In this document: positions 7,501 to 44,932 of the stretch, piece by piece
How the letters are laid out: every line of letters begins with the position of its first letter
Position numbering within the stretch: the stretch's first letter is position 1
NCBI GenBank assembly: GCA_947623995.1
Contig: CANQIN010000002.1
Span: 1 to 51,336 of the forward strand
Direction of reading: 5' to 3'
Origin: an uncultured Bacilli bacterium
GTDB taxonomy: Bacteria > Bacillota_I > Bacilli_A > RF39 > UBA660
Length of the DNA stretch: 51,336 bases
Notes under the pieces: generated by a model
The model's input: the letters and a program-made list of their open reading frames with translations, nothing else
What the model was told of the DNA's origin: nothing
Database searches by the model: none
Made by a program: the position numbers and the translations under genes

Positions 7501-9133
7501 TACCATATTTAGGTTTAAGAGTCATATTTTGATGTAATTCTTCAGTTAATGGAACACCAACTCCACCTTCATCAACTAAACCAGCATAATGTTTTGTTTT
7601 ATCATTATCGTATCCTTCAACAATTTCTAAAATTCGAGAATTAGAATTTAAAGTTTTTCCTTCATCAAAAGTAAATGTTTCTTCACCAATCTTAATTTCA
7701 ACTTGATATTTAGCAGTTATAGTTACATCTTTATTAAAGATATAATCATCATCAATTTCTTCATCATCTTGGTCTTTAAAACCTACAAATTTTTTAGTAT
7801 CAACACTTTCTAAAGCACTTATTTTATCTTTTACAGCTTCAGTTGCTTTAAAATCTTTAAATTTAGTATTTTCTTCTACTTCAAAATTTCCTTCTACGCC
7901 ATCTATTGTAACATTATAAAGTTTTACATAATTAGAATAAATATCCATATTCTTAGTTAATTCAGTTTCAACATTAAATTCTTTCTTTTCATTAGTATCA
8001 TCATCAATAAATTGATATCCTTTTAATCTATATCCTTCTTTTTCACTTGGTAATTCTTTTTGATTTATTTTAGCATTTTTATCATATGCTTTAACTGTTA
8101 AATTACCTTCATTATCATAAATTCCTACAACAACATAATCAGCATCTACATTATATTTATAAGGAACTGTTATTAATGATTCTTTATTATTTTTAGATAA
8201 AATAATATCTACGCCATTTTCAATATAAATAACATTACTATTATCAGCTGTATTACTTTTGCCAAAATTAAAGATTGCACTACCAGGAGCATTATTTTCA
8301 TCAACAATTTTAGAATTTCCTGTAATATTTAATTTAATATTTGAACAAGGGGTCTCGCCATCTAAAGAGAATATATATTCAGCATTAGGACTTTTCGAAT
8401 CATTACCTGTAACTATTGTATTATTAAGATTAATAGTTAAACCTTTTTCATTTTCAATAGATATTGCTTCTTCATTTTCATGAAGAGAAGAACGCGCACT
8501 AATGTTAGAATCATTAACATTGATAGTGTTATTTTCACCATTTAGAATATCAAAAGCTTTTTGTCCACTTATGTAACTATTATTATAAATATTAATTTCT
8601 ACATCAGAAGCAGCAAGTCTAATACCATCATATAATATTGAAAACATCGAATTATTAATGTCAATTTTAGAACCATTAGCACCATCAATATTTAAAACAG
8701 TTTGATAAACACCTTTATTTAAATTATCGCCGCGACCAATTGTCAGAAATGTAACTTTTTCTAAAGTAAGATTTACTTTTTTATTAACTTTAACATAATT
8801 CCAATTAAGATTCTTAGTTATTGGAACAGCTCTAATATTTTTAATTACAACATTATTTGGAGTATCATCTTCATCATCAATAATAATTTCACTATTAATT
8901 GTAGACCCTTCACCTTCAATAGTAAGATCTTTATTTATGATAATTTGAGTTCCTTCATTACCATAAGTTCCACCAGTTAATCTTAAAGTATCACCAACAT
9001 CAGCATTTTCGATTGCAGTTTTTAATGTTGTTGCCCCAGCATTAACTTTGGTAGTTTTAGCAAAAACACTAGGCATACCACACATCATACCTACACTAAC
9101 AACACTAATAAATTTAACAAGATTTTTTTTCAT
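4529..9133 (-). CDS. Giant repeat-rich surface protein with a candidate sortase-B type sorting signal
   Basis: Signal peptide MKKNLVKFISVVSVGMMCGMPSVFA. The N-terminal ~400 aa are N/G/I-rich and beta-helix-like. About 17 tandem modules of 62-72 aa follow. The C-terminus is NPQTVD, a hydrophobic helix, then KKLNK. Confidence 0.85.
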   Translation of the reverse strand: MKKNLVKFISVVSVGMMCGMPSVFAKTTKVNAGATTLKTAIENADVGDTLRLTGGTYGNEGTQIIINKDLTIEGEGSTINSEIIIDDEDDTPNNVVIKNIRAVPITKNLNWNYVKVNKKVNLTLEKVTFLTIGRGDNLNKGVYQTVLNIDGANGSKIDINNSMFSILYDGIRLAASDVEINIYNNSYISGQKAFDILNGENNTINVNDSNISARSSLHENEEAISIENEKGLTINLNNTIVTGNDSKSPNAEYIFSLDGETPCSNIKLNITGNSKIVDENNAPGSAIFNFGKSNTADNSNVIYIENGVDIILSKNNKESLITVPYKYNVDADYVVVGIYDNEGNLTVKAYDKNAKINQKELPSEKEGYRLKGYQFIDDDTNEKKEFNVETELTKNMDIYSNYVKLYNVTIDGVEGNFEVEENTKFKDFKATEAVKDKISALESVDTKKFVGFKDQDDEEIDDDYIFNKDVTITAKYQVEIKIGEETFTFDEGKTLNSNSRILEIVEGYDNDKTKHYAGLVDEGGVGVPLTEELHQNMTLKPKYGISVEIGDDVFFFEEQGHKLGDLTNEDKVKLENYKKADNKTFKHFEDANGDTVDMETVFDENAVLTPKFTINVKINDVEDITLDEGQSLSNIDTLSTYKTKAGLKFMRFEDANGETINERDPLHENIQLTAIFAYEITIDSKIYDLEEGKKLEDSEEIMNALETLKDSEKDFSRFVDVDKNTVNTNEVITKNLTISALYNINVEIGENIYKIEEGKMLSEDTELKSALDALKDVVKKNFKKYVINSVEYDSLDDYVASEDISIVATYTITITITDKGEFTLDEGNSLSSSADIMAIIDEYKNDGTRHFADLIDENGIGIPVDMELHENMTLSPKYGMSIQIGEEVFFFDDLNHRLNEILLREDTDEDKIRLNSIINPGNKDFSYFEASGNKYYIDTEFSENAVLTPKYTINVTINGENKTLDEGQFLSDIEDLSNFKTKDGRKFLRFEDEDGNVVSEDSPLKEHINLKAIFGVTVTIENTGDKFDLAEGNDATQNLELYQALDDLMYNGDFSRFVDLDGNTITTATPITDNITIKALYFKTVMVEDEEYQIEEGKKLNDEKDIVDALNELKNVSNKVFKEYVVDGVINNEIDFETVVNDDMNIKANYSIRISIDGIEQLLDEGQSLSDLANLSNFKIKEDRKFLKFEDLDGNTVLETTVLNENVDLKSIFTLEVTINDKVYDLIEGKSLESNESIKNALEALKKNRKEFSRFVDLDGNTVEVNTNINEPLTIKALYKNSVTVGDESFKLEEGKKLSDDKDIVNALNKLKEATNKQFKEFVVDNKVVEDLDYDMIVNDDIVVKANYKIIVKLNEHEFVLDENSKLSDLSSEELSLIEKIMKEERFVRFVDEDGNTILLDTVLNENKNLSIKHYIIVTIGDEEFKLEEGQSLSDLNDEDKQRLEKLMEHDETKEFKGFKNIKNEEEITLDTKLNEDINLEVILSDVVVENEEVDNNVSNPQTVDNIMTYVMMAVISLIVLVFGIKNSLKKLNK
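4680..7930 (-). repeat. In-frame tandem array of ~17 modules of 62-72 codons inside the giant protein, with a 5-module higher-order repeat
   Basis: Recurrent pattern (V/I)x(I/V)x...(L/F)xEGxxL.....F(S/K)(R/K)F(V/E)DxDGNT(V/I)....(I/L)xxNxx(L/I)xAxY, which is InlB-B-repeat/Flg_new-like. Modules 2-6 (EIKIGEETFTFDEGKTL...) are re-used as modules 7-11 (TITITDKGEFTLDEGNSL...). Confidence 0.8.
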
Positions 9134-9261: not shown

Positions 9262-10629
9262 TTAATTTTGAATTAATATAAACGGATTATCAATACTTCC
9301 ATATTCTAGTTCTGGATTAGGATTCGAACTTATTTTTACAGATGATTTTAAATAAACAACTGGTCTAATTTCATAAGCATTAAAAGCATTATACTGTGAA
9401 AAAAGCCCATCTCTTGCAAAACCCATAACTAAACCACCAGAATTTGCAGCTACATTTGGAGTAATACTCCATTCATATTTATTCAATAATATCCATATAT
9501 TATCATTACATCCATTTTTATCATATAAATACATTTCACTATTCAAACAATTATTTCTAATATTTCCACCACTTGCATAACCATAATCTGATGGATACAT
9601 TAAGCCAATTTTTCCAACCCACTCTGTAGTTCTATTAGTTGTATCATTACACAAATTACTATTTCCAGATTTAACACAAAAATCTTTCCCATTATTTTTA
9701 CTTCTTTCATAATCATACAAATAATATGGAAAAGTTATACTAGAAGTCCACTCTAAAGGTATTGTACCAGTATTCCATTTAATATTTGCTATCATACCTC
9801 TTACACTATTATCAATACCAACATTATCCCAAACAGGACATTCTTTAACATTATTATTAATGCCACTATAACATATTCCCCCACGATTTTCTTTATATAA
9901 ATAATCATTATTCAACACTTTTTGAATATCAGATTCACTCCATTCATTAACACCTTTACCATTATTTATATCAGGTGCACTACTATCCCAACTATAATTA
10001 CCCAAACTATCATTTTTAACAATTTTTAAATAACTTCCCATATTTTCAACTTTACTATCATCTTCACTTACTTCAATAATATTATTCATAATACCTAAAA
10101 CTCTCCATAATTCATTATTAAATTTAATATAATTATTAGGACCTACACCTATATATCTTAAATTATTATCTTTAGTACCTAATTTTTCTCCTAACACTTC
10201 TTTACCATCATAAGCTAAATTTACCTTATCAGTTTCACTTAATTTAGATATATAACAAAGTATACTATCACTACCATATTTATCACATAATTCTATTGAT
10301 TCTTTTTTTCTGAAATATAAACTACATTTTGTTTTACTTTTACTTAAATTCTTTACTAATGGTGCCCATTCTTCTTCATGCCAAATGATAGTTGCTCCAT
10401 TGTCACATTCTCCCCTACTAAATATTAAATCTTCAGAATTATCTTTCAAGGGCATTGCATTTAATTTCTCTTTTCCATTATAAAAAGCAAAATATACATC
10501 ATTATTATTAAAATTAAAATTTGTCTTAAAAAGTAAAAAAGAAACTCCTAACAATATAATAATACTTGCACCTATTACTATTAATTTTCTACTATTTATA
10601 TTTTTACTTAAAAAATTTTTCAACTTCAT
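9262..10629 (-). CDS. Paralog family member, class-I N-module with type-c C-module
   Basis: N-terminal basic stretch plus TM helix. The N-module is YFAFYNGKEKLNAMP..GECDNGATIIWHEEEWAPLVKNLSKSKTKCSLYF. C-module motifs are NNLRYIG, NNELWRVLGIMNN, GLMYPSDYGYA, RPVVYLKS and a DNPFILIQN tail. Confidence 0.85.
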   Translation of the reverse strand: MKLKNFLSKNINSRKLIVIGASIIILLGVSFLLFKTNFNFNNNDVYFAFYNGKEKLNAMPLKDNSEDLIFSRGECDNGATIIWHEEEWAPLVKNLSKSKTKCSLYFRKKESIELCDKYGSDSILCYISKLSETDKVNLAYDGKEVLGEKLGTKDNNLRYIGVGPNNYIKFNNELWRVLGIMNNIIEVSEDDSKVENMGSYLKIVKNDSLGNYSWDSSAPDINNGKGVNEWSESDIQKVLNNDYLYKENRGGICYSGINNNVKECPVWDNVGIDNSVRGMIANIKWNTGTIPLEWTSSITFPYYLYDYERSKNNGKDFCVKSGNSNLCNDTTNRTTEWVGKIGLMYPSDYGYASGGNIRNNCLNSEMYLYDKNGCNDNIWILLNKYEWSITPNVAANSGGLVMGFARDGLFSQYNAFNAYEIRPVVYLKSSVKISSNPNPELEYGSIDNPFILIQN

Positions 10630-10652: not shown

Positions 10653-10685
10653 ATTATAACTCTTAAACCCCCCCCCCTGTGTCAA
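10653..10685 (-). promoter_or_regulatory. Switch promoter P1: TTGACA-CA-G10-TTTAAGAGT-TATAAT (21-nt spacer)
   Basis: -35 at 10685-10680; plus-strand C10 at 10668-10677; -10 at 10658-10653. A conserved leader AGAATAGGTGATTTT precedes the ATG at 10629. Confidence 0.7.
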
Positions 10686-11248: not shown

Positions 11249-12619
11249 CTACCGTGCAATGAACGGTGTTCCTTTTTCACCATTTCCATCTATAATTTTT
11301 GTAGAAGATTTTAGATATACAACAGGCAAAATATCACCATAATCACCTTCTCCAGCTGAGCAGCTACCGATACCAAAATCCATACTCACACAAAACACAG
11401 TATTACCATAATCTGCTGCTGGAGTAATTGTAAATGCATCATAGCCTAGCATTAACCAATCATTTGTGTTACAACTATCACTAACATATGAAACCATACT
11501 TTTTCCTAAACATATTTCTCTTACTTCTCTTCCTACAGCATATCCGTAGTCACTAGGATAAATTAAGCCTATATATCCATCCCATGTTGTTGTTCTTTCT
11601 ACTTCATCATTACAATATCTATTATTACTCTCACATTGTTCCTTACCATTATGAGTACTTCTTTCTCCCTCATACATATATTTTGCTGATATTTTGCTAC
11701 TATAATATTTTTCACCTATCGTTCCCGTATTCCATCTTACTTTAGCTATCTTTTTCTTTGCTTCTTCACTTATTCCACTACTTGTAAAATCACATGGCTT
11801 ATAACTACTGTTATTTTTATAACAATATCCATTTTCCCTATTCCAATACAAACTTCTTCCTATTTCTGGGATTCCACTATATATATCTTGAGGATTTAAT
11901 AATTTCATTATATCTGCTTGACTCCATTCATTTACTCCCTGACCATAATTTATTTCTGATTCACTAATATCCCAACTAAAATAACCTATACTTCCTGTTC
12001 TTATTATTTTTAATAAGCTTTCTTGTTGTCCGCCATTATCTAAATTAGTTATATTATTCATGACTCCTATTATTCGCCATAATATTGGATTACCATCACC
12101 ATCACTATCTCCTATATCTATATAATTATTTACATCTGCATCTGCTCCTACATATCTTAGATTTGCATCATTTGTATCATCAACCCATAAATTTGTTGTA
12201 TCTGTTTTAGCTAAATCAATAATATAATCAGCAGCATTTGGCTCATATTCTTTAAAATATAAGCTACATTTGGTTTTACTTTTACTTAAGTTCTTTACTA
12301 TTGGTCCCCATGTTTCACTATCCCATATTATACTGGCTCCATTATCACATTCACCATGGTCAAATACTAAATTTTCTTCATTACCTTTCTGAGGCATTTC
12401 ATCTAATTCTTCATCACCTTTATAAAACGCAAAATAAATATCACTGTTACCAAAATAATCTACTTTTCCCTTCATCATTGGAAACTCTGCACTTTCTGTA
12501 AAAGATGCGAATGTTTTGTATAGAATTAATGATACACTTATTAAGACTATTACACTTATAGTTATTAGTATTGTTCTTCTTCTTTTTTCATTTTTATCAA
12601 CATACTTTTCTAGCTTCAT
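11249..12619 (-). CDS. Paralog family member, class-I N-module with type-a C-module
   Basis: N-terminus MKLEKYVDKNEKRRRTILITISVIVLISVSLILYKTFASFTESAEFPMMKGKVDYF. N-module ..GECDNGASIIWDSETWGPIVKNLSKSKTKCSLYF. C-module motifs NNYIDIGDSDGDGNPILWRIIGVMNN, NGKEQCE, YCNDEVERTTTWDGYIGLIYPSDYGYA and PVVYLKS. Confidence 0.85.
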   Translation of the reverse strand: MKLEKYVDKNEKRRRTILITISVIVLISVSLILYKTFASFTESAEFPMMKGKVDYFGNSDIYFAFYKGDEELDEMPQKGNEENLVFDHGECDNGASIIWDSETWGPIVKNLSKSKTKCSLYFKEYEPNAADYIIDLAKTDTTNLWVDDTNDANLRYVGADADVNNYIDIGDSDGDGNPILWRIIGVMNNITNLDNGGQQESLLKIIRTGSIGYFSWDISESEINYGQGVNEWSQADIMKLLNPQDIYSGIPEIGRSLYWNRENGYCYKNNSSYKPCDFTSSGISEEAKKKIAKVRWNTGTIGEKYYSSKISAKYMYEGERSTHNGKEQCESNNRYCNDEVERTTTWDGYIGLIYPSDYGYAVGREVREICLGKSMVSYVSDSCNTNDWLMLGYDAFTITPAADYGNTVFCVSMDFGIGSCSAGEGDYGDILPVVYLKSSTKIIDGNGEKGTPFIAR

Positions 12620-12642: not shown

Positions 12643-12674
12643 ATTATAACCCTTAACCCCCCCCCCTATGTCAA
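12643..12674 (-). promoter_or_regulatory. Switch promoter P2: TTGACA-TA-G10-TTAAGGGT-TATAAT (20-nt spacer)
   Basis: -35 at 12674-12669; plus-strand C10 at 12657-12666; -10 at 12648-12643. Leader AGAATAGAGTGATAAA precedes the ATG at 12619. Confidence 0.7.
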
Positions 12675-13103: not shown

Positions 13104-14306
13104 TTAATAAAAATATCTGATAATAAACGTTGTTTCATTATCTTTAGAATCTACCATAATAGTTCCATTGCTTTTTAATATAATAGCTTTTGCTAAAGAA
13201 AGCCCTATTCCTATACTTTCTTTTAAAGAAGAATCATAATGATAAAATCTTTCAAATAAATGTTTTTTATCTTCACTACTTAAAACTTTTCCATAATTAG
13301 TTATCTTAACTTCACTATAAAGATTATTTTCTTCTAAATTAATTAATACTTCACTTTTCTTTTTAGAATGTTCAATAGCATTTTTTAAAATATTAGTAAT
13401 TGCTTCTACATTCCAATCTTTATCACAATTAATAGTTGTTTTATTTTTTCCTTTTACAATAATTTTAATATCTTTTAAATCACATAAAGAAGAAACATTT
13501 AAAATTGCTTTATTAATAATGGTAATTAAATTATGAGGTTCACTTTTAAATTCAATCATATTAACTTCTAATTTTGATAATTTTAATAAATTAGTTATTA
13601 AAAATTTCATATTATTTATTTCTCTTTTAATACTTCTTAAAGCTTCTTCTTTTTTAATATCAAGATTTTCTTCATCAAGTATATTATCAACAGTAATTAA
13701 TATGGCTGTTAAAGGAGTTTTTAATTGATGAGTTATATTTTCTAATGATTCTTTTAATTCTAATTTATCTTTTTTAGAATTAATAGCTGTTTCTTTTAAC
13801 ATAACGGTTGTCTTATAAATTTCATCTCTTAATTTAGATAATTCATCTTCACTCATACTTTCTAATTTTAAAGAATAATTCTGATTATTAAGTTCTTTTA
13901 AATAATTAGTTATTTCATTTAATTCTTTATTTCTTTTTCTAAAATATAATCTAAATAAATATATAATAATTAATAAACTTAAAAAGATAAAAGCAAAATT
14001 TAAATAATTAAAATAATTTTTTAAAGAATTATTTTTTAAAATTACTGATTCTTCATTAATATCAATACTATACTTTTTTAAAAATTCTTCATTAAAATTA
14101 TTAGAATTTAAGATGTTAATAAGTTCATTATCTTCAATATGATATTTTTCTTTTACATTATTTATAATACTAACAATTGCTAAATTATAATTTTTAGTTA
14201 AGCTTTTATTTTCTAATGATATTAAAACAACTAAAGTAACACTTAGAGTAAGACTAACAATTAAACTTAAAAGATAATATTTTTTTAATTTAAGATTATT
14301 CTTCAT
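13104..14306 (-). CDS. Sensor histidine kinase (two TM helices, HisKA plus HATPase_c)
   Basis: H-box ITHQLKTPLTAI, N-box NILKNAIEHS and G-box-like GIGLSLAKAI. It overlaps the response regulator gene by 11 nt. Confidence 0.85.
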   Translation of the reverse strand: MKNNLKLKKYYLLSLIVSLTLSVTLVVLISLENKSLTKNYNLAIVSIINNVKEKYHIEDNELINILNSNNFNEEFLKKYSIDINEESVILKNNSLKNYFNYLNFAFIFLSLLIIIYLFRLYFRKRNKELNEITNYLKELNNQNYSLKLESMSEDELSKLRDEIYKTTVMLKETAINSKKDKLELKESLENITHQLKTPLTAILITVDNILDEENLDIKKEEALRSIKREINNMKFLITNLLKLSKLEVNMIEFKSEPHNLITIINKAILNVSSLCDLKDIKIIVKGKNKTTINCDKDWNVEAITNILKNAIEHSKKKSEVLINLEENNLYSEVKITNYGKVLSSEDKKHLFERFYHYDSSLKESIGIGLSLAKAIILKSNGTIMVDSKDNETTFIIRYFY

Positions 14307-14943
14307 CTATCCGATACCCTATTCCTTTCAATGTATTAACAATATCACTATCTAATTTTTTCTTTAAACGATTAAAATAAACCGTTACAGTATGATCATC
14401 AACATCATTGCCAGTTAAATTCCAGATTGTATCAAGTATCATACTCCTTGATACAACATGATTAAGATTTAAAAATAAAAGATTTAAGAGTTGAAGCTCT
14501 AAGGGTGTTAAAGAAAGGGGAATATTATTTTTATAAACAATCATTTTATCAAAATCATAAGTAATATCTTTTACTTTAATAATATTCTTATTTATTTTTA
14601 AAATTTTATTGATACGCGCAATTAATTCTTTGATACTAAAAGGTTTAGTAAGATAATCATCAGCTCCCATATTAAGACCATTTACAATATCTTCTTCAGA
14701 ATCAAAAGCTGTTAAAATAATAGTCGGAATATTAATCTTTTTAATAACATTTTTAAAGAAATCAAAACCATTACCATCAGGCAAAGAAATATCTAAAATT
14801 ATTAAATTAGGTTTAGTAGATTCTAGATATTTCCTTGCTAAAGATAAAGATGTTTTAACAATAAGTTCATAACCATTTTTTTCTAATGATTCTTTAAGAG
14901 ACTTTCCAATATTGATATTATCTTCAATTAATAATATTTTCAT
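14296..14943 (-). CDS. OmpR/PhoB-family response regulator
   Basis: Receiver domain MKILLIEDN..ILDISLPDGNG..LTA..KPF. The C-terminal winged-helix region is LTPLELQLLNLL..GIGYRI. Confidence 0.9.
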   Translation of the reverse strand: MKILLIEDNINIGKSLKESLEKNGYELIVKTSLSLARKYLESTKPNLIILDISLPDGNGFDFFKNVIKKINIPTIILTAFDSEEDIVNGLNMGADDYLTKPFSIKELIARINKILKINKNIIKVKDITYDFDKMIVYKNNIPLSLTPLELQLLNLLFLNLNHVVSRSMILDTIWNLTGNDVDDHTVTVYFNRLKKKLDSDIVNTLKGIGYRIDEE

Positions 14944-19903: not shown

Positions 19904-21622
19904 TTAAAAAGCCAAAACAAGTCGAAAACTATCCCATTTTGCTAAACTGCCATATGCTTCATAAGAACGGAATATACCAGAACCAATGCCATCAGTGAAA
20001 TGGCCACCACGTCTAACCCATGGTCCAGCCGAATAGACAATCCAAGCCTCATCGTCATACCAACTGCCTACATATCTTGACTGTGTTAAATACTTCATAC
20101 TTTGGAACGGGCCCATTTCTTTTGTTGCATCTCCTAAAAAGCTTCGATTATATGATGTATTGCTTGTACTATAAGCGTATTTATCATAATATCTTTCATC
20201 GGTTGGTAAGGCAATTCCTTCTGTTACTTCTGAAATATTGTGATTTATTTCTACTCCACTATCATTACATTCTGGACATGTTAATTTTCCTATAAATCCT
20301 GAATTATATGCATTATGCCGTCCTGATGATAATTTTCCAGTATGACCATCTCCTGTTGAATTGTCATCCATTCCAGCCATCATAGTTTCCCAAGATCCTC
20401 CACTCATGTCATATATTCCACTGTAATTTCCAGTTGTACTTGCTACCACACTTGCTTTATTAAAATAATTGGTGTTATACTCACCATCAGCTCCAGGTGA
20501 TGATACACCTCCATATTCATTGCAAGCATCAGGTGTATTACTACATAACTCATTTGTTCCTGTATATCCTGTAGTTGGTTCACGTATTGCAGCATAACCT
20601 GTTAAATAATTGGAATTATTATTGATTCTTACACTTTCATGACTTCCATACACACTATGTTGTAAATAGGCTACGGCTCCCCATTCACTATTTTTCATCA
20701 TATGACTTTTTAAAGACTCTTCATAATGTAATCCCACTATGTATGCTTTTGCTACTTGAATACTTCTCCATGAATATACATTTGGTTTAATTATGACTTT
20801 ATTTGCTGCTTCTATAGAAGCTGCTTCATCACTAGGATTTATCTCTGCAACTTGTGTTCTTTCTGCTCCATCATATCCAGTTTCAAATTTTCCTACCCAT
20901 ATTCCATTGGTATTAAATGATGTGAAGGCTGGATGGGTTAACCATTCACCTTGTTTACTTCCATTTTGTACTTCTTCATCTTTTGTTTCAAATATCACAT
21001 TAATTATTTGTTCTTTATTTGTTTTCGTTGTTAATCCATTATAATTTCCTTCATCAAATATTTGATATCGATATCTGGGGATCCATACAAAATAACTTTC
21101 AATATCTCTTTCTTCTATTGGTTCATTTTCTCCTGGGTCTTCTACACCACTTCTTAATATGACTGCATTTGCCCACTTTTGAGCTCTATAATCATACCAC
21201 TTTTCTTTTTCACTTGCTCTTGTTACTAGTCCATTTTCTTCATTTATTACTATTGGTATTAATTTACTACTTAATTCTGGATCTGCTCCATTTAATTCTC
21301 TATCTATATATTTATTATTAAAATATAAAGTACACTTAGTTTTATTTTTTCTTAAATTCTTTATTAATGGAGCCCATTCTTCACTATTCCATTCAATACT
21401 TGCTCCATTATCACATTCTCCATCTATATAAACTAATCCTTCACTATTTTCTTTACTTGGCATTTCACTTATTTTTTCTTTTCCTTTATAAAAGGCTATA
21501 TCTATATTTTCATTACTATTTTCATTTATTAATAATTTTTCATAGTTTGTAAATGTTAATATATTTAATCCACTTATTAATATCACAATAATTATTAACA
21601 TTATATTTAATTTTTTCTTCAT
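19904..21622 (-). CDS. Paralog family member, class-I N-module fused to an unrelated FGE-sulfatase/SUMF1-like C-domain (type d)
   Basis: N-module IAFYKGKEKISEMP..GECDNGASIEWNSEEWAPLIKNLRKNKTKCTLYF. The C-terminal part has HPAF..GIWVGKFE, GIYDMSGGSWE, RRGGHF and a FRLVLAF end, and lacks the NLRYIG/PSDYGYA motifs. Confidence 0.8.
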   Translation of the reverse strand: MKKKLNIMLIIIVILISGLNILTFTNYEKLLINENSNENIDIAFYKGKEKISEMPSKENSEGLVYIDGECDNGASIEWNSEEWAPLIKNLRKNKTKCTLYFNNKYIDRELNGADPELSSKLIPIVINEENGLVTRASEKEKWYDYRAQKWANAVILRSGVEDPGENEPIEERDIESYFVWIPRYRYQIFDEGNYNGLTTKTNKEQIINVIFETKDEEVQNGSKQGEWLTHPAFTSFNTNGIWVGKFETGYDGAERTQVAEINPSDEAASIEAANKVIIKPNVYSWRSIQVAKAYIVGLHYEESLKSHMMKNSEWGAVAYLQHSVYGSHESVRINNNSNYLTGYAAIREPTTGYTGTNELCSNTPDACNEYGGVSSPGADGEYNTNYFNKASVVASTTGNYSGIYDMSGGSWETMMAGMDDNSTGDGHTGKLSSGRHNAYNSGFIGKLTCPECNDSGVEINHNISEVTEGIALPTDERYYDKYAYSTSNTSYNRSFLGDATKEMGPFQSMKYLTQSRYVGSWYDDEAWIVYSAGPWVRRGGHFTDGIGSGIFRSYEAYGSLAKWDSFRLVLAF

Positions 21623-21649
21623 CTTATAATCACTCTATTCTATAGAGTA

Positions 21650-21681
21650 ATTATAACCCATAACCCCCCCCCCTGTGTCAA
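21650..21681 (-). promoter_or_regulatory. Switch promoter P3: TTGACA-CA-G10-TTATGGGT-TATAAT (20-nt spacer)
   Basis: -35 at 21681-21676; plus-strand C10 at 21664-21673; -10 at 21655-21650. The ATG is at 21622. Confidence 0.7.
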
Positions 21682-21742
21682 TATTTAATTATTATTTTAA
21701 ACCACTTTTAACTATAATTTTTTTAAGAAAATTATTATTCAT

Positions 21743-21778
21743 AAAAAAATCTAAATTGTAATTTAACAAATTAGATTT
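21743..21778 (-). terminator. Intrinsic terminator after class-II paralog 21786-23363
   Basis: Minus strand AAATCTAATTT..loop..AATTTAGATTT (one mismatch) followed by TTTTTTAT. The homologous site at 34728/36329 is the one split by the IS. Confidence 0.5.
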
Positions 21779-21785
21779 AATAGTC

Positions 21786-23363
21786 TTATTCTATCATAAA
21801 TGGATTATCGATACTTCCATATTTCAAATCATTATTCGGATTTTCTAATATTTTAATATTTGATTTTAAATAGGCTACAGGTTTAATATTTCCAAAAGTA
21901 TCAACGCCTCCACTTGTAGCATATCCCTCAGCTGAAACAAAAAATGCAGTATGAGAATATTCTGTTAATGGAGCTGGATTAATAGTCCAAACATTAGTAT
22001 TAGAGCTAAGCCAATCATTTAAATTACAATTTTCTGTATTATAGGTATTTATACTTTTTATTAAACAATTTGTTCTTACATTTCCTCCTACCGCATAGCC
22101 ATAATCCGATGGATGTATTAAACCTATATATCCATCCCATGTTGTTTTTCTTTCTACTTCATCATTGCAATATATTCCACCTGTATTTTCACATTGTTCT
22201 TTACCATTATGATTACTTCGTTCACTTTCATACATGTATTGAGCTGTTATTTTATTTGAATAATCTATTTCACCAACTGTTCCAGTATACCATCTTACTT
22301 TTGCTATCTTACTCTTTACTTCTTCACTTAGCCCACTATTTGTAAATTCACATGGTATATTTAATTCGCTATATGCATTATAACAATATCCTTTTCCTCT
22401 TGTCCAATATAAACTTGCTCCGATTTCTGGTGTTCCACTATATACATCTTGAGGATTTAATAATTTCATTACATCAGCTTGACTCCATTCATTTACTCCC
22501 CAACCATTATTTATATTTGGTGCACTACTATCCCAGCTATAATCTCCTATATTATCTGCTCTTATTATTTTTACTAAACTTTCTTGCTTTTCAATATCAT
22601 CTAAACTTGTGATATTATTCATAACACCAATTACTCGCCATAATATTGGATTACCATCACCATCTCTATCTCCTATATCTATATAGTTATTTGGTTCTGC
22701 TCCAATATATCTTAAATTATTATCTTTGGTATTATCATATGATAAATTTGTTTCTTCGGTTTTGGCTATTTCTTCTATATAATCACTTGCTACTTGTTCA
22801 CCTATTTTTCCTTCAACCACTATTTTTGATTTTGCTATTTCATTTTCTATTCCACTTTCTTTTGTTACTTCTTCTTTTATCCATAATCTTAACTCATAGT
22901 TTACACTTTCTAATTTTCTTAATCTTCCTTCTGTTAATTGACGACTTTCTTTTGCTTCACTTATTTTTGGTATTTCATTTTCAGGATATTTACTTAATAT
23001 TTTAGGTTCTGTTTCTGTTTCTTCTTTATTTAATAATACTTTTATATTTTCACTATTTAATGTTGTTTCATTTAACATTTCTAAATTTATACTATAATCT
23101 ACATAATTTTCACATTCATTACGGATTGTAAATTTATATGGCTCTAGAATTTTTCCTTCTACATCTGTTTTTGGAAATGTATTTGTTAAACTTATGTTAT
23201 CTTCTTTATTTGTTAATTCTATATCTAAACAACTTGTACTTAAGATATTTTCATTTGTTTGTTCTTTTGTTATTACCCATAAAGCATAACTTACTCCTAT
23301 AGTTATTATTATTAACATTATTACCACTAATCCTATATATAATTTCTTTTTATTTTTGGCCAT
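21786..23363 (-). CDS. Paralog family member, class-II (TasA/camelysin-like) N-module with type-a C-module
   Basis: AAGGAGAA SD lies before the ATG at 23363 (MAKNKKKLYIGLVV..). The sequence continues SYALWVITKEQTNENILSTSCLDIELTN..FTIRNECENYVDYS. The C-module closely parallels 11249-12619 (KIAKVRWYTGT, NGKEQCE, YCNDEVERKTTWDGYIGLIHPSDYGYA). Confidence 0.85.
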   Translation of the reverse strand: MAKNKKKLYIGLVVIMLIIITIGVSYALWVITKEQTNENILSTSCLDIELTNKEDNISLTNTFPKTDVEGKILEPYKFTIRNECENYVDYSINLEMLNETTLNSENIKVLLNKEETETEPKILSKYPENEIPKISEAKESRQLTEGRLRKLESVNYELRLWIKEEVTKESGIENEIAKSKIVVEGKIGEQVASDYIEEIAKTEETNLSYDNTKDNNLRYIGAEPNNYIDIGDRDGDGNPILWRVIGVMNNITSLDDIEKQESLVKIIRADNIGDYSWDSSAPNINNGWGVNEWSQADVMKLLNPQDVYSGTPEIGASLYWTRGKGYCYNAYSELNIPCEFTNSGLSEEVKSKIAKVRWYTGTVGEIDYSNKITAQYMYESERSNHNGKEQCENTGGIYCNDEVERKTTWDGYIGLIHPSDYGYAVGGNVRTNCLIKSINTYNTENCNLNDWLSSNTNVWTINPAPLTEYSHTAFFVSAEGYATSGGVDTFGNIKPVAYLKSNIKILENPNNDLKYGSIDNPFMIE

Positions 23364-23403
23364 AACACATTCTCCTTGTATAACTATTATTTTTATTATC
23401 AAT

Positions 23404-25598: not shown

Positions 25599-26945
25599 TC
25601 AAAATGTTAATCGAAAAGGATTATCTATTGAACCGTAATTATCACTTTCATCTGATTCAATATAGACTTTATTATTTAAATATACAGTTGGTAAAATATT
25701 TGCTTCCTGATTTACATCACCCCAATAAATACCACTCATAGTAGAACTTATAGCAGTTTTATTAGAATTATCAAAATGAGTAGTTAAAAACCAATGACTA
25801 TCAGTATACAACCAATTAATATTTTCAATTGTATAACATGTACTATCAAAATCTAGTAATTTTTTTTCTAAGCAAGTTTCTCTATCATTTGCAACTGCAT
25901 AGCCATAATCTGATGGATAAATTAACCCAACTCCATTATGATATTTTGAATCATTTTCTCTGGTCCATACACTTGGATAGCCACTTTCTTTTACTGAAAC
26001 ACTTCTTTCTTTTTCATACATCGTTGGTGCATTATATATATCATTTGGTTCACCCAAATTCCATATAACATCTTTATCAATCATCAGCCTTGCTTCTTCA
26101 TTTAATCCTTTTGAATTTATATTATCTTGAGTAAAATCACATTCTGTTGGAATAGGATTATTTACATCTTGATAGCAATCACCAATCTCACTATTATAAT
26201 ATATGCCATTTAACATATCTTTTAAAGTTGAAGTTGTCCAATCATTATTATATGTAGATTTATAATCCCAACTATAATATCCTAAATCATCCATAAAGTG
26301 AAAATCTTCATTTTCATCAGTCCAAAATACATTTGAAATTCTTGTTAATTTTACTCTTTGTTCTATTCCACTATCAGTTTGAACGTTTACGAGTCCAATA
26401 ATTCTCCATATTTCATCATTAAATGCTATATAATTATTAGGATCTTCTCCAGCATATCGATATTCTATTTTATTCCAGCCACTATCTATTTCAGTAACAC
26501 TATGATCTACTTTATACAATCCATCACCAGTCTCTACAATAGGAATATCTCTATTTAATTGAAAACCAGTTTGTTCTTTAAAATATAAGCTACACTTTGT
26601 CTTTACTTTTTTTAATCCTTTTACTAATGGGGCCCATTCATTGTTGTTCCATTCAATACTTGCTCCATTATCACATTCACCATGGTCAAATACTAAATTA
26701 TCTGGATTATCTTTTACTGGCATCGTATCTAACTGTTCATCACCTTTATAGAATGCAAAATAAATATCGCTATTACCAAAATAATCAACTTTTCCTTTCA
26801 TCATTGGAAATTCTGCACTTTCCGTAAAACTTGCAAAGGTTTTATATAGAAGTAATGAGACACTTATTAAGACTATTACACTTATACTTATCAATATTGT
26901 TTTTCTTCTTTTCTTACTTTTATCTTCATATTTTTTTAGCTTCAT
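25599..26945 (-). CDS. Paralog family member, class-I N-module with type-b C-module
   Basis: N-terminus ..YKTFASFTESAEFPMMKGKVDYFGNSDIYFAFYKGDEQLDTMP..GECDNGASIEWNNNEWAPLVKGLKKVKTKCSLYF. C-module motifs EYRYAGEDPNNYIAFNDEIWRIIGLVNV, LKDMLNGIYYNSEIGDCY, GLIYPSDYGYA, PTVYL and DNPFRLTF. Confidence 0.85.
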   Translation of the reverse strand: MKLKKYEDKSKKRRKTILISISVIVLISVSLLLYKTFASFTESAEFPMMKGKVDYFGNSDIYFAFYKGDEQLDTMPVKDNPDNLVFDHGECDNGASIEWNNNEWAPLVKGLKKVKTKCSLYFKEQTGFQLNRDIPIVETGDGLYKVDHSVTEIDSGWNKIEYRYAGEDPNNYIAFNDEIWRIIGLVNVQTDSGIEQRVKLTRISNVFWTDENEDFHFMDDLGYYSWDYKSTYNNDWTTSTLKDMLNGIYYNSEIGDCYQDVNNPIPTECDFTQDNINSKGLNEEARLMIDKDVIWNLGEPNDIYNAPTMYEKERSVSVKESGYPSVWTRENDSKYHNGVGLIYPSDYGYAVANDRETCLEKKLLDFDSTCYTIENINWLYTDSHWFLTTHFDNSNKTAISSTMSGIYWGDVNQEANILPTVYLNNKVYIESDESDNYGSIDNPFRLTF

Positions 26946-26967
26946 ATAATCACCTATTCTTAGGTAA

Positions 26968-26998
26968 ATTATAGCATTTACCCCCCCCCCTATGTCAA
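26968..26998 (-). promoter_or_regulatory. Switch promoter P4: TTGACA-TA-G10-TAAATGC-TATAAT (19-nt spacer)
   Basis: -35 at 26998-26993; plus-strand C10 at 26981-26990; -10 at 26973-26968. The ATG is at 26945. Confidence 0.7.
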
Positions 26999-28488: not shown

Positions 28489-30564
28489 TTAGTTAACGCT
28501 GTTTTTCTTAATTATTTCTTCAGCGATAGATTTTGGAACTTCTTCATAATGGTCTAATTCCATTGTAAAGTTTCCACGACCTTGAGTATTAGAACGCAAA
28601 CTAGTTGCATAACCAAACATTTCAGCTAATGGAACCATTGCTGTAATAGCTAGGGCATTACCACGTGATTCTTGTCCTAGAGGACGACCACGACGACTTG
28701 TTAAGTCACCCATAACATTACCCATGTATTCATCTGGAACAATAACAGTTACTTTCATGATTGGTTCTAATATTACAGGTTTACATTTATTTTTAGTTTC
28801 TTTAACTGCAAGACTAGCAGCAATTTTGAAAGCCATTTCAGATGAGTCAACATCATGATATGAACCATCAAATAATGTTGCTTTAACATCAACCATTGGG
28901 TATCCAGCAAGTACACCACCGGCCATAGCCTCTTGTAAACCTTTATCTGTTACTGGGATATATTCACGAGGAACAACACCACCAACGATAGCATCAACAA
29001 ATTCATAACCTTTGTCTTTATTTGGTTCAAAACGAACCCATACATGACCATATTGTCCACGTCCACCTGATTGTTTAATATACTTACCTTCACATTCACC
29101 CATTTGAGTAATTGTTTCACGATAAGCAACTTGTGGACGACCAATATTAGCATCAACGTTAAATTCTCTTCTCATTCTTTCAACTTGAACCTCTAAATGA
29201 AGTTCTCCCATACCACTGATAATAGTTTGACCAGTTTCAGGATCAGTTTTATAACGGAAAGTAGGATCTTCTTCAGCTAATTTTTGTAAAGCTGTACCTA
29301 ACTTTTCTTGATCAGCTTTTGATTTTGGTTCAATAGCTTCATCAATAACTGGTAAAGGAAATTCCATACCTTTCATAATAACTGGATGTTTTTCATCACA
29401 TAAAGTATCAGCAGTTGTGGTATTTTTAAGTCCTACAGCAGCGGCAATTTCACCACAATAAACTTCAGATATTTCTTTACGATTATTAGCATGCATTTGT
29501 AGGATACGACCAATACGTTCTTTTTCACCTTTAGTACTATTCATAATGTATGAACCACTAGTTAAATGACCAGAATAAACTCTAAAGAAAGCTAGTCGTC
29601 CAACAAATGGATCAGCCATAATCTTAAATGCTAAAGCTGTAAATGGTTCTGAATCACTTGGATGACGCATAACATCTTCACCAGTTTTAGGATCATAACA
29701 TTCAATAGATGGAACATCAGTAGGAGCAGGTAAATAATCAATTACAGCATCTAATAATAATTTAATACCTTTATTTGATAAAGCATCACCACATAATACT
29801 GGATAAAATTGATTAGATAAAACACCTTTTCTAATTGCACTTTTAATTTCTTCAACACTTAATTCTTCACCATTTAAGTATTTTTCCATTAATTCGTCAT
29901 CAAATTCAACAACAGTTTCAATTAAATCAGCTCTTTTAGTTTCAACTAAATCTTTTAAATCAGCAGGTATTTCAATTTCAACAGCATTTTCTTCTTCTTT
30001 ACCATCATATTGATAAGCTTTTCTTGTAATTAAATCAACAATACCATTAAATTCATTTTCAGCTCCAATAGGCCATTCAATAGGTTTAGCATTTGCTCCT
30101 AATCTTTTAGAAATAGTTTCTAGACTATAAGCAAAATCAGCTCCTAATTTTCCCATTTTATTACACATAATCATTCTTGGAACTTTAAATTCATCTGCTT
30201 GACGCCAAACCGTTTCAGTTTGAGGTTCAACACCAGCTTGAGCATCTAAAAGGGCAACAGCACCATCTAATACTCTAAGACTTCTTGAAACTTCAACAGT
30301 AAAGTCGACATGGCCTGGAGTATCGATAATATTAAAACGATATCCTTTCCAATGCGCTGTAGTTGCAGCAGAGGTAATAGTAATACCACGTTCTTTTTCT
30401 TGATCCATCCAGTCCATTTGTGATTCACCATCGTGAGTTTCACCAATTTTATGAATACGACCAGTATGATATAAAATTCTTTCAGTTGTCGTAGTCTTAC
30501 CAGCATCAATATGAGCCATTATTCCAATATTTCTTACTTTATCAATAGCAACATCTCTAGCCAT
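28489..30564 (-). CDS. fusA: Elongation factor G
   Basis: [23 protein letters not shown] and NKMD motifs; 691 aa. Confidence 0.97.
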
Positions 30565-31689: not shown

Positions 31690-33015
31690 CTATTGAACTG
31701 ATAATACAAAAGGCGAATTTATATCTCCTGTTCCATCAACAATTTTTGTAGAAGTTGTTAAATATAAAGTTGGCCAAACCATAATTTCGGAATTGACACG
31801 ATAATCACTGCTAGTTACCCAACCTTCATATTCTACATAGAATGCATGATTGGAATCATTAGAATCTAGTGATAAAGTCCATAGACAATAATAGGGACTT
31901 GGAGTTAACCAATCATTTGTATAGCAATTACCTCCATCATAATCATATAAATTTTTGACTAAACAATTATTCCTTACTTCTCCTCCTACGGCATAACCGT
32001 AATCACTTGGATAAATTAAGCCTATTCCATTATGCTTTTCTCCTACATCTGTTTCAATACTCCATTCACTTGGATATGTATTACTACTTCCTGTACTTGT
32101 TCCCCTTTCTTTTTCATAAAATTGTTTTGCTGTTATTGTCTCTGTATCCCATCCACCTATATTCCAGCTTACTTCTTTATCTATCATATTTCTTGCTGTA
32201 TCATCTAATCCTTTTGGTAAAATTGCTCCTGTATTAAAATCACACTGGCTTACTATACCACTACTGCTATTATAGCAATCTCCTATTCCACTTTCATAGT
32301 ATATTCCATTCAGCATATCTTTTAATGACGAAGTATTCCAATTATTAGTATCTGTATCCCAATAATACTGGCCAAAATCCTTTTGGCCTTTTACACCATC
32401 TTGTCTTACTATTTTTAGTCTTTGCTCTATTCCACTTTCAGTTTTTACATTTACTAAACCTATAATTCGCCAGATTTCATTATTAAAGAATACATAATTA
32501 TCTGGATCAGCTCCAGCATATCGATATTCAGTTTGATTCCATTCTTGACCAAGTTCTTCTAAATCATCATGAGTTACGACATAAAGTCCATCTCCACTTT
32601 CTACTACTGGTATTTTCATTCCGCCTAATTCTACACCTACTTGTTCTTTAAAATATAAACTACATTTAGTCTTACTTTTACTTAAATTTTTAACCATTGG
32701 TCCCCATTTTTCACTATTCCATTCGATTGTTGCTCCATTATCACATATTCCATGGTCAAATACCAAATTTTCTTCATTACCATTCTGAGGCATTTCATCT
32801 AATTGTTCATCACCTTTATAGAACGCAAAATAAATATCACTATTACCAAAATAATCTACTTTACCTTTCATCATAGGAAATTCAGCACTTTCAGTAAAAC
32901 TTGCAAAGGTTTTATATAATAGAAAAGAAACACTTATTAACACTATTACACTAATGGTTATTAGTATTGTTTTTCTTGTTTTACTATTCTTATCAACATA
33001 CTTTTCTAGCTTCAT
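31690..33015 (-). CDS. Paralog family member, class-I N-module with type-b C-module
   Basis: Same N-terminus and N-module as 25599-26945 (..GICDNGATIEWNSEKWGPMVKNLSKSKTKCSLYF). C-module motifs EYRYAGADPDNYVFFNNEIWRIIGLVNV, LKDMLNGIYYESGIGDCY and GLIYPSDYGYAVGG. Confidence 0.85.
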   Translation of the reverse strand: MKLEKYVDKNSKTRKTILITISVIVLISVSFLLYKTFASFTESAEFPMMKGKVDYFGNSDIYFAFYKGDEQLDEMPQNGNEENLVFDHGICDNGATIEWNSEKWGPMVKNLSKSKTKCSLYFKEQVGVELGGMKIPVVESGDGLYVVTHDDLEELGQEWNQTEYRYAGADPDNYVFFNNEIWRIIGLVNVKTESGIEQRLKIVRQDGVKGQKDFGQYYWDTDTNNWNTSSLKDMLNGIYYESGIGDCYNSSSGIVSQCDFNTGAILPKGLDDTARNMIDKEVSWNIGGWDTETITAKQFYEKERGTSTGSSNTYPSEWSIETDVGEKHNGIGLIYPSDYGYAVGGEVRNNCLVKNLYDYDGGNCYTNDWLTPSPYYCLWTLSLDSNDSNHAFYVEYEGWVTSSDYRVNSEIMVWPTLYLTTSTKIVDGTGDINSPFVLSVQ

Positions 33016-33038: not shown

Positions 33039-33071
33039 ATTATAAACTTTAAAACCCCCCCCCCATGTCAA
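33039..33071 (-). promoter_or_regulatory. Switch promoter P5: TTGACA-T-G10-TTTTAAAGTT-TATAAT (21-nt spacer)
   Basis: -35 at 33071-33066; plus-strand C10 at 33055-33064; -10 at 33044-33039. The ATG is at 33015. Confidence 0.7.
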
Positions 33072-33262: not shown

Positions 33263-34597
33263 TTATGATTCTAAAATAAATGGATTATCAATTGTTCCAT
33301 ATTCTTTTTCAGGTTTAGAATTCGGAAGTATTTTAACATTATTTTTTAAATATAGTGTTGGCCAAACGCCTTTACTGTATAGACCAGAATTACGCACATA
33401 TCCATACAAACCAATATAAAATGCACCACGTGAGTATGAAGAATTAGGTGTTAAAGACCATGAATCGCCATCAATAGGTTTTAACCAGTCAGTTCCAGCA
33501 CATTCACTTTGATAATTTATAATATTATTTTCCCAGTTATATAATTCTTTTGTAAAGCATGCTTCCCTTCCTAAATTACCTCCATTAGTCGCATAACCAT
33601 AGTCACTTGGATAAATTAATCCTATTCCATTATGTTTTCCTAATGGATCATTTTTATTACTCCATTCAATTGGATAATCGCTATTTCCAGTTACACTTCC
33701 CCGTTCTTTCTCATAAAAAACATTTACTAAAACATCATTTTCTGGAAAAACTCCTCCAATATTCCAAATTACTTCTTTATCTATCATTTTTCTTGCAGTT
33801 TCATCTAAGCCTTTTGGCAAATTACTGTTTCCTGTGAAATCACATTCATTTTGAGTATCTTGATTTTCATTAATTACTGGAAAACATTCACCTATCGTAC
33901 TTTCATAATATATGCCATTTAACATATCTTTTAATGTTGAAGTATTCCAATTGTTTACATATCTATCCCAAACATAGTTTCCAAAATTTTTTTGAGCATC
34001 AATACCATCGGTTCTCACAATTTTAATTCTTTGTTCTATACCTCTTGCAGTTGCAACATTTACTAAGCCTATTATTCGCCATGTCTCATTATTAAATTTG
34101 ACATAATTATTTGGATTAGAACCTGCATATCGATATTCTATTTTATTCCATTCTTTATTTATTCCATTTACTTCATGACTTACTTTATACAGTCCATCTC
34201 CACTTTCAATTGTTGAAACATTTTTTATAAAATCTATTCCTGATGATTGCCTAAAATATAAAGCACACTTAGTTTTACTTTTACTTAAATTCTTTACTAA
34301 TGGGGCCCATTCTACTTCATCCCAAAGAACATATGCACCATTGTCACATTTTCCATAATCAAAAACTAAATCTTCATTATTATCTTTATCTGGCATTTCA
34401 TCTATTTGTTCTTCTCCTTTATAAAATGCAAAATAATCTACTTTTCCCTTCATCATTGGAAATTCTTCACTTTCGGTAAAAGATGCAAATGTGTTATATA
34501 ACAAAAAAGAAATACTTATTAAGACTATTATGCTTATAGTTATTAGTATTGTTTTTCTTCTTTTTTTATCTTTATTATTATTCTTTTCTAGCTTCAT
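33263..34597 (-). CDS. Paralog family member, class-I N-module (7-codon deletion variant) with type-b C-module
   Basis: ..FASFTESEEFPMMKGKVDYFAFYKGEEQ.. lacks GNSDIYF. The rest includes GKCDNGAYVLWDEVEWAPLVKNLSKSKTKCALYF, EYRYAGSNPNNYVKFNNETWRIIGLVNV and GLIYPSDYGYA. Confidence 0.85.
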   Translation of the reverse strand: MKLEKNNNKDKKRRKTILITISIIVLISISFLLYNTFASFTESEEFPMMKGKVDYFAFYKGEEQIDEMPDKDNNEDLVFDYGKCDNGAYVLWDEVEWAPLVKNLSKSKTKCALYFRQSSGIDFIKNVSTIESGDGLYKVSHEVNGINKEWNKIEYRYAGSNPNNYVKFNNETWRIIGLVNVATARGIEQRIKIVRTDGIDAQKNFGNYVWDRYVNNWNTSTLKDMLNGIYYESTIGECFPVINENQDTQNECDFTGNSNLPKGLDETARKMIDKEVIWNIGGVFPENDVLVNVFYEKERGSVTGNSDYPIEWSNKNDPLGKHNGIGLIYPSDYGYATNGGNLGREACFTKELYNWENNIINYQSECAGTDWLKPIDGDSWSLTPNSSYSRGAFYIGLYGYVRNSGLYSKGVWPTLYLKNNVKILPNSKPEKEYGTIDNPFILES

Positions 34598-34620: not shown

Positions 34621-34652
34621 ATTATAAACCTATACCCCCCCCCCTATGTCAA
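34621..34652 (-). promoter_or_regulatory. Switch promoter P6: TTGACA-TA-G10-TATAGGTT-TATAAT (20-nt spacer)
   Basis: -35 at 34652-34647; plus-strand C10 at 34635-34644; -10 at 34626-34621. The ATG is at 34597. Confidence 0.7.
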
Positions 34653-34735
34653 CATTTAAATTATTATTTTAAACCACTTTTTATGTTTATACTATAAATT
34701 TTCTTTTTTTGAAAATTATTATTCATAAAAAAATC

Positions 34736-36328: not shown

Positions 36329-36371
36329 AAAAAATCTAACTTGTAATTTAACAAATTAGATTTAATAGTTT

Positions 36372-37955: not shown

Positions 37956-37981
37956 TATTATCACTCAATTCTATAATTTAT

Positions 37982-38001: not shown

Positions 38002-38041
38002 GATATTCACATCATTTTAAACCACTTTTTTATTATAAATT

Positions 38042-44879: not shown

Positions 44880-44901
44880 TATAATCATCCATTCTACTAT
44901 G

Positions 44902-44932
44902 ATTATAGCTCTTGACCTATCCTCCATGTCAA
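44902..44932 (-). promoter_or_regulatory. Switch-promoter homolog with a degenerated tract (TTGACA-TGGAGGATAGG..-TATAAT, 19-nt spacer)
   Basis: -35 at 44932-44927 and -10 at 44907-44902. The position of the G10 is occupied by GGAGGATAGG. The upstream flank matches P5. Confidence 0.5.

Follow-up and report, generated by a model that had tools for sequence, protein, structure and literature searches.

A conserved G10 tract in the promoters of a membrane-anchored protein family of an uncultured rabbit-gut Bacilli bacterium: a candidate slipped-strand promoter switch

The DNA analyzed here, referred to as the window, is a stretch of 51 kb (51,336 nucleotides) from an uncultured Bacilli bacterium with a GC content of 26.2%. 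Its features of interest, all located around gene C or related to the promoter of this gene, are compiled in Table 1. According to the first-pass annotation, gene C (19904-21622) is preceded by a promoter in which the -35 and -10 hexamers are separated by a 20-nt spacer containing ten consecutive Gs. Re-reading of the sequence reproduced this layout exactly: the minus strand from 21681 to 21650 reads TTGACA-CA-GGGGGGGGGG (G10)-TTATGGGT-TATAAT. The spacer length was confirmed from the coordinates of the two hexamers (21681-21676 and 21655-21650), the motif AAGTGGTTTAAAAT is indeed located 12 nt 5′ of the -35 hexamer (minus strand, 21707-21694), and the ATG of gene C starts 27 nt after the -10 hexamer.

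Table 1. Features of the gene C locus and related features elsewhere in the window.
Feature	Position	Strand	Description or basis
-35 hexamer TTGACA	21676..21681	-	Direct reading
CA between -35 hexamer and tract	21675-21674	-	Direct reading
G10 homopolymer in the spacer (C10 on the plus strand)	21664..21673	-	Candidate slippage tract; direct reading, homopolymer table
TTATGGGT between tract and -10 hexamer	21663-21656	-	Direct reading
-10 hexamer TATAAT, 20 nt from the -35 hexamer	21650..21655	-	Direct reading, hexamer-pair search
Upstream motif AAGTGGTTTAAAAT (family form GTGGTYYAAART)	21694..21707	-	About -64 to -51 from the predicted start
Inverted repeat TTATAATTACTCTAT-AGA-ATAGAGTGATTATAA	21623..21657	-	15 bp, one G-U position
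Gene C, start codon ATG	19904..21622	-	572 aa; N-terminal membrane anchor, small beta module, C-terminal FGE-type C-type-lectin-fold domain
AT-rich terminator-like hairpin with T7, 3′ of gene 21786-23402	21747..21778	-	-9.1 kcal/mol, z -3.2
Sister promoter before 9262-10629	10653..10685	-	TTGACA-CA-G10-TTTAAGAGT-TATAAT, 21-nt spacer
Sister promoter before 11249-12619	12643..12674	-	G10, 20-nt spacer
Sister promoter before 25599-26945	26968..26998	-	G10, 19-nt spacer
Sister promoter before 31690-33015	33039..33071	-	G10, 21-nt spacer
Sister promoter before 33263-34597	34621..34652	-	G10, 20-nt spacer, with AAGTGGTTTAAAAT
Decayed sister promoter	44902..44932	-	TTGACA-T-GGAGGATAGG-TCAAGAGC-TATAAT, 19-nt spacer
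Genes of the second subfamily	21786-23402, 36372-37964, 42867-44435, 46740-48404, 48574-50217

In the stretch that separates the terminator of the preceding gene from the start codon of gene C, no consensus promoter other than this one is present. Since the terminator-like hairpin separates gene C from upstream read-through, the gene needs a promoter of its own, and the TTGACA and TATAAT boxes suggest that it is used by sigma-A. As in repeat-containing promoters, the homopolymer is uninterrupted and at least about eight residues long (G10), and it is placed between the -35 and the -10 region, as defined by consensus, so that tract length sets their spacing. A standard promoter scan with spacers of 16-18 nt does not call the gene C promoter, because the 19-21-nt spacers of the G10 promoters fall outside this range; in the gap 21623-21785 it found nothing better, the best candidate being ATTACA-17-AATAAT with 9 of 12 matching positions. 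The hexamers ACACAG and GACACA, located 17-18 nt from TATAAT, were considered as alternative -35 regions and rejected, as at most three of their six positions match. An extended -10 motif (TGn) is absent from the gene C promoter and was found only in the promoter at 26968-26998. The upstream motif AAGTGGTTTAAAAT is possibly a factor-binding or UP-like element, and a search of the whole window against Rfam gave no match.

The tract of gene C is one of six. The C runs of the window have lengths of 1 to 5, followed by six runs of exactly 10, with none of 6 to 9; the G runs on the plus strand do not exceed 5, and the longest A and T runs comprise 8 and 9 residues, respectively. The C10 runs start at positions 10668, 12657, 21664, 26981, 33055, and 34635. 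All six share on the minus strand the context TTGACA-N1-2-G10-N7-10-TATAAT, followed by a conserved leader ending in GTGAT and the ATG, with spacers of 21, 20, 20, 19, 21, and 20 nt in this order, and the gene behind each of them encodes a modular protein with a membrane anchor that is a paralog of the others. The base composition predicts about 0.0009 runs of at least 10 Gs or Cs per window. Homopolymer lengths are error-prone, and the G9 variant of the gene C tract described below could be a miscall, but the tracts are not restricted to the window: four independent assemblies of ENA and five metagenome-assembled genomes (MAGs) of NCBI contain them as well. An origin by chance or by sequencing or assembly artefacts is therefore extremely unlikely.

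Seven TTGACA/TATAAT pairs with 12 of 12 matching positions are present in the window; all have spacers of 19-21 nt and all belong to the G10 promoter family. The boxes of near-perfect housekeeping promoters in the window are 17-18 nt apart, namely TTGACT-17-TATAAT before htpG (4504) and TTGACA-18-TATAGT before the rpsL-fusA-tuf operon (31601), so the organism otherwise keeps to standard spacing, from which the G10 promoters deviate. The motif AAGTGGTTTAAAAT occurs four times exactly in the window; with up to two mismatches there are seven matches compared to 3.6 expected, a mild enrichment only. Of 30 distinct family promoters, 19 have its looser form GTGGTYYAAART at a constant distance of 12-13 nt from the -35 hexamer. 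The promoter of 36372-37964 (37965-38027, minus strand) corresponds to the gene C promoter without CA-G10 (TTGACG-TTATGAGC-TATAAT); it has a gap of 8 nt between the boxes and retains AAGTGGTTTAAAAT at 12 nt, and its gene is intact. In the region 34700-36330, between the terminator of 36372-37964 and the promoter region of 33263-34597, a gene for an ISL3-family transposase (34824-36158) is located, with three copies of TAGTGGGGAG upstream of it and an inverse copy, CTCCCCACTAA, on its far side.

The six driven proteins have a common N-terminal membrane anchor and a small beta module. The products of genes A, B, D, E, and F share their C-terminal domain with the second subfamily of the window, and gene C resembles them only within about the first 100 residues (about 36-104), after which the sequences diverge. 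In relatives, the C-terminal domain of the gene C protein is joined to three different N-terminal modules. The gene C protein has more than 7000 homologues, all unnamed, and at least 10 C-type paralogs are encoded in one MAG. Searches of the six driven proteins against Pfam and NCBIfam assigned no family. A TFASFTE motif, which we took as a hint of a SipW-type signal peptide, was not confirmed as such by these searches.

The C-terminal domain of the gene C protein was identified by a fold search, as sequence profiles were insufficient. An AlphaFold model based on 84 sequences had a mean pLDDT of 87.7, and the top match in a Foldseek search of the PDB was TaqVP (5vf4), the variable protein of a diversity-generating retroelement (DGR) of Thermus aquaticus (E 8e-8, probability 1.0). 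Formylglycine-generating enzyme (FGE) structures followed with E 0.17-1 and TM scores of about 0.41-0.45 on the target. Pfam FGE-sulfatase (PF03781) did not match the gene C protein even at E 10 and gave weak matches in 6 of 17 relatives (best E 5.6e-4), and a profile search of PDB sequences gave only matches with E 0.5-1, PvdO at E 1 being the only FGE-like one. The last 100 residues of the gene C ORF contain no cysteine, hence the catalytic cysteine pair of FGE is absent. According to the structural model, the domain is thus an FGE-type C-type-lectin fold of the binding kind and not an enzyme. The first-pass annotation had named the protein a domain-swapped FGE-like paralog. The domain swap stands, since one C-terminal domain pairs with three N-terminal modules, and so does the FGE-type fold; an identity as FGE enzyme was not borne out, given the missing Pfam match and cysteines. 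An N-terminal helix combined with a C-type-lectin fold like that of DGR variable proteins fits an exposed ligand-binding protein.

Although a DGR variable protein is the best structural match, neither a reverse transcriptase nor a template repeat was detected in about 20 of the 46 window ORFs that were scanned with Pfam or in the ORF list of the window, and diversity in the present family would come from paralogs and, putatively, from promoter switching. In a metagenomic contig with 32% GC (locus L020, 11585-15458; JGI 3300010163), a DGR consisting of bAvd and a reverse transcriptase adjoins a homologue of gene C with 46% identity, the 3′ end of which is repeated four to five times nearby. Within the window, the tandem paralogs 46740-48404 and 48574-50217 (minus strand) have identical N-terminal halves, near-identical upstream regions of 230 nt and different C-terminal domains, which looks like a recent duplication with domain exchange. 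Directly downstream of the first G10-driven gene lies an ORF of 1534 aa (4529-9133, minus strand) without a match in Pfam or NCBIfam.

The leader of gene C can fold back on its own promoter sequence. The 5′ arm of the inverted repeat listed in Table 1 consists of the -10 hexamer and the discriminator, and its 3′ arm consists of the Shine-Dalgarno (SD) sequence GAGTGAT (21635-21629) and the bases reaching to 1 nt before the ATG. RNA covering the region from the -35 hexamer to the ATG has a predicted folding energy of -14.7 kcal/mol (z -4.4), compared to 0 kcal/mol for RNA beginning at the predicted start (about position 21643, about 7 nt past TATAAT). The sister promoters share this complementarity between -10 region and SD sequence over 9-15 bp. 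Among 23 distinct family leaders, 21 have a fully paired SD sequence, and the mean energy of the set is -9.9 kcal/mol, versus about -2.2 for shuffled sequences and 0 for RNA from their own start. Three leaders have GGTGAT instead of GAGTGAT in the right arm; in two of them, ACCTA takes the place of ACTCTA in the left arm.

Because RNA starting at the gene's own promoter lacks the 5′ arm, the hairpin is possible only in read-through RNA. Judged from the folding, RNA entering from upstream would fold and hide the ribosome-binding site, which would prevent translation, and RNA begun at the gene's own promoter could be translated. The gene would thus be expressed strictly according to the state of this promoter, and we infer from the predicted structures that the hairpin serves as insulation against read-through. 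Alternatively, the palindrome formed by the -10 region and the SD sequence could be the DNA operator of a dimeric repressor.

The same hairpin would be expected if the tract itself were transcribed, i.e., if the real start were located upstream, for example near the TAAAAT of the conserved motif, and G10, hexamers, and hairpin were parts of a leader controlling translation. The strong structure hiding the SD sequence exists only in RNA starting upstream of the -10 hexamer, and TAAAAT could serve as -10 region. However, a conserved -35 region upstream of the motif is missing, the motif itself is absent from three of the six promoters of the window, no Rfam match was obtained, and a transcribed leader gives no reason why every copy should have a perfect TTGACA and a perfect TATAAT. 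We therefore regard a transcribed tract as very unlikely.

The distribution of the tracts was analyzed in about 275 kb of clade DNA, the overlapping loci of which come from related assemblies of the rabbit gut and from MAGs with the title "uncultured Bacilli bacterium". All 50 G runs of at least 6 residues in this DNA have TTGAC or TTAAC within 9 nt upstream. Among 47 promoter instances, 38 carried G10, 4 carried G9, and 5 had interrupted tracts; the spacer was 20 nt in 27, 21 nt in 10, 19 nt in 9, and 18 nt in a single instance, a G9 promoter at locus L006. Neither a 17-nt spacer nor a G7 or G8 tract, the predicted ON length, on an intact promoter was found among the 47 instances. A promoter pattern anchored on the -35 region, the -10 region, and the leader, and not on the Gs, detected 11 sites among the GTDB species representatives, all of which belong to five MAGs from rabbit ("Lapin") that bear this same title. 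In JGI metagenomes the promoter/leader pattern gave one chance match without a tract. The DNA of distant homologues (proteins 46-64% identical, 29-32% GC) had no G run of at least 6 residues, indicating that the tract is confined to the rabbit-gut clade.

For gene C itself, orthologous loci were reached via the neighboring gene, as the exact gene C protein was not on record. Four ENA assemblies (ERZ27249363, ERZ27249368, ERZ27249370, and ERZ27249377) contain DNA that is 99.7-100% identical to the window. The gene C tract is G10 in the window, ERZ27249377, and ERZ27249363, and G9 in NODE_307 of ERZ27249370. This difference is the only gap in blastn alignments of twelve orthologous stretches with the window, which otherwise show 0-36 substitutions per stretch; at a coverage of about 28x it could be an Illumina or assembly homopolymer error. 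The observed spacers at this locus are thus 19 or 20 nt, and a functional spacer of 16-18 nt was not found there. The other five tracts of the window are G10 in every covering assembly (3-4 assemblies), and G9 also occurs in three paralogous promoters.

The positions at which the ENA assemblies differ from the window by substitution are bunched in short patches (20385-20588, 13674-13821, 14622-14851, and 28912-28960); the patch within gene C, 20385-20588, contains 13 substitutions in 204 nt. Such bunching points to recombination or gene conversion and less to point mutation. In two other assemblies (L002, 3332-5532; L004, 1852-4052), a gene pair encoding an AAA_21 ATPase and a RloB-domain protein, which looks like a defence system, replaces the G10-driven gene that corresponds to window positions 25599-26998 between tuf and a gene of the EPSP-synthase family, and no G tract is present there.

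A further reading is that the tract is mainly a hotspot of recombination or insertion, used for promoter and cassette exchange or as a landing site of mobile DNA. At three loci (L013 at about 109, minus strand; L014 at about 77, minus strand; L015 at about 4105, plus strand), TTGAC-N-G6-8 abuts unrelated DNA, which is either a perfect palindrome of 28 nt containing ATGTATACAT repeats or sequence that runs up to an ORF similar to C5-cytosine methyltransferases. These junctions may represent landing sites of mobile DNA or assembly joins. The modular family with its variously combined N- and C-terminal parts and the patchy substitutions in gene C would also agree with a hotspot. Nevertheless, there are only three junctions, all on fragmentary MAG contigs, for which no second junction was found; the boundaries of the domain swaps lie inside the genes and not at the tract, and the perfect hexamers are left unexplained. 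A hotspot function is consequently considered very unlikely.

Pseudogene copies offer a further view on the tract. The decayed promoter at 44932 has two perfect hexamers and AAGTGGTTTAAAAT 13 nt upstream, and downstream of it only a 36-codon stub and a frameshifted, truncated N-terminal module remain (44675-44932, minus strand). A second decayed tract, TAATGGTGGAGG, precedes a stub of 65 aa at locus L013. In these dead copies, A or T has replaced some of the Gs and interrupts the run, which an AT-rich genome would lead one to expect. Since the G run decays in pseudogene copies, with both hexamers still perfect in the copy at 44932, the uninterrupted run appears, as far as the sequences tell, to be maintained by selection in most live genes, for whichever purpose. 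Two kinds of exceptions were observed: one G10 tract precedes a stub of 50 aa (L006-14675), and three interrupted tracts precede apparently intact ORFs, namely GGGAGGGGAGG at L017, GGGGAGGGG at L014 (2097), and G6AGG at L015 (96). These three keep spacers of 19-21 nt, and if the tract is a switch, the genes behind them would be permanently OFF. A gene for a class B sortase lies among paralogs of the second subfamily and immediately upstream of the decayed promoter (45113-45967, minus strand; TIGR03064, E 1.5e-43); many paralogs end with ...IDNPF(I/V)L..., and these C-terminal ends might be related to the sortase.

We favor the reading that the G10 promoter is a slipped-strand promoter switch of a large family of membrane-anchored or secreted proteins that is mostly OFF in the bulk population, and assign it a probability of roughly 60%. 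With the modal G10, the spacing would be 2-4 nt too long and the promoter weak or OFF in most cells. Slippage during replication would alter the tract by one G at a time, making it shorter or longer, and with G8 or G7 (spacers of 18 or 17 nt) a strong promoter with perfect consensus would be ON. The few expressing cells would consequently differ from one another in the family members they produce, a bet-hedging strategy against antibodies, phages, or niche changes. The length of 10 would be the mutational equilibrium that is visible in population consensus sequences, and as such an equilibrium, the near-uniformity of the tracts is compatible with a switch. A metagenome consensus is the mode of a population and not the state of a single cell. 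In favor of the switch count the restriction of G runs to the TTGAC/TTAAC context, the G9/G10 polymorphism, and the maintenance of the tract in most live genes. Against it counts that an ON state is reached from G10 only by two or three successive one-base deletions, and that the number of Gs stays the same although spacer length ranges from 19 to 21 nt, a pattern that would not arise from selection on spacing alone.

A competing view regards G10 as a structural or protein-binding element of fixed length within an over-spaced promoter, kept at 10 by purifying selection. The promoter would be turned on by a specific activator in the way of MerR-type proteins, with GTGGTYYAAART or the palindrome of -10 region and SD sequence as possible binding sites. 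Promoters of the MerR type have spacers of 19-20 bp, similar to the 20 nt of gene C and the 19-21 nt of the family. Of the 42 uninterrupted tracts, 38 are exactly G10, and whatever the flanking bases, the spacer keeps to 19-21 nt in all but one case (18 nt), including interrupted tracts of the same length before intact genes. The constant distance of the upstream motif in 19 of 30 promoters and the palindrome over the -10/+1 region would fit binding sites, and the tract decay in pseudogenes reveals selection and not its target. On the other hand, MerR operators are dyad-symmetric, which the spacer CAGGGGGGGGGGTTATGGGT is not, and G9 variants exist, including that of the gene C tract in otherwise identical DNA. 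We know of no bacterial factor that requires a poly-G spacer, and a run of 10 Gs in a genome with 26% GC is a classic signature of a slippage tract. A shortening of poly-G in A-form, which might allow 20 bp to act as 17, was considered in a rough calculation with helix parameters and discarded, as the gap in length and twist was not closed. The fixed-element explanation is serious, because no tract of ON length was seen, the G count is constant, and interrupted tracts retain 19-21 nt; all in all, we judge it rather improbable.

If the tracts do switch, dozens of lectin-fold surface proteins are under contingency-gene control in an uncultured lineage of the rabbit gut, with a bearing on how commensals evade antibodies and phages, and metagenome consensus sequences conceal expression states. 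The switch together with the hairpin between -10 region and ribosome-binding site would tie a gene compactly to its own promoter, a design that is easily tested and reused, and the lectin fold of gene C is one that other bacteria diversify with retroelements. A literature search found no description of this poly-G promoter system. Tentatively, we see a modest chance that the arrangement is of a sort not described before, either a two-layer, deep-OFF switch that runs a very large lectin-fold family of a gut commensal by a poly-G mode 2-4 bases beyond the working spacing and by the fold-back of -10 region and SD sequence, or a fixed G10 element read by a factor that allows a 20-bp spacer. In a deep-OFF switch each gene would need several slippage steps to fire, since the mode is 2-4 bases too long.

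Phase variation by repeat tracts is textbook knowledge for pathogens, among them Neisseria, Haemophilus, Campylobacter, and mycoplasmas. To our knowledge, it is barely documented in walled, spore-forming gut Firmicutes, for which invertible promoters dominate the literature. A close parallel is the vlp system of Mycoplasma hyorhinis, in which each promoter of the family contains a poly-A tract whose insertions and deletions go along with the ON and OFF states of transcription (Citti and Wise, 1995, as cited in PMC10502178). Both are multigene families of surface proteins in which every gene has its own homopolymer promoter, and the hosts belong to the same broad lineage (class Bacilli in GTDB). 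The differences concern the tract, which is poly-G in a genome of 26% GC here and poly-A there, the host, which has genes for a cell wall and spore germination here, and the products, which are not lipoproteins here. Furthermore, the mode lies 2-4 nt over the usual spacing here. As far as we know, a fold-back of -10 region and SD sequence is not part of the vlp system.

In porA and opc of Neisseria meningitidis, the length of a repeat tract between the -35 and -10 regions sets promoter strength. The vmm promoter of Mycoplasma mycoides also has repeats in the spacer (PMC10502178). The location of the repeat is thus the same as in the G10 promoters, but the lengths in porA, opc, and vmm straddle the optimum and vary widely among isolates, whereas nearly all lengths here are 10 and all are above the optimum. 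Poly-G tracts of Campylobacter jejuni have a modal length of G9, which was attributed to the mutational pattern, with insertions at G8 and deletions at G11, and in this AT-rich genome G/C runs of at least 8 residues are confined to contingency loci (PMC3401435). A sharp modal length is common to both organisms, G9 there and G10 here; however, most C. jejuni tracts are coding and act by frameshift, in contrast to the six tracts of the window, all of which are located in promoters. The fold-back resembles that of IS10 (Tn10), for which inhibition of externally initiated transcripts was reportedly described by Davis, Simons and Kleckner in 1985. In both cases, sequence upstream of the gene's own start pairs with the ribosome-binding site, so that only read-through RNA is or would be blocked; here, the 5′ arm is the -10 hexamer itself, the driven genes are not transposases, and the function is deduced from folding only. 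Compared to the known repeat switches, two features of the G10 promoters are unusual: a modal tract length well above the working spacing and the fold-back between the -10 region and the SD sequence.
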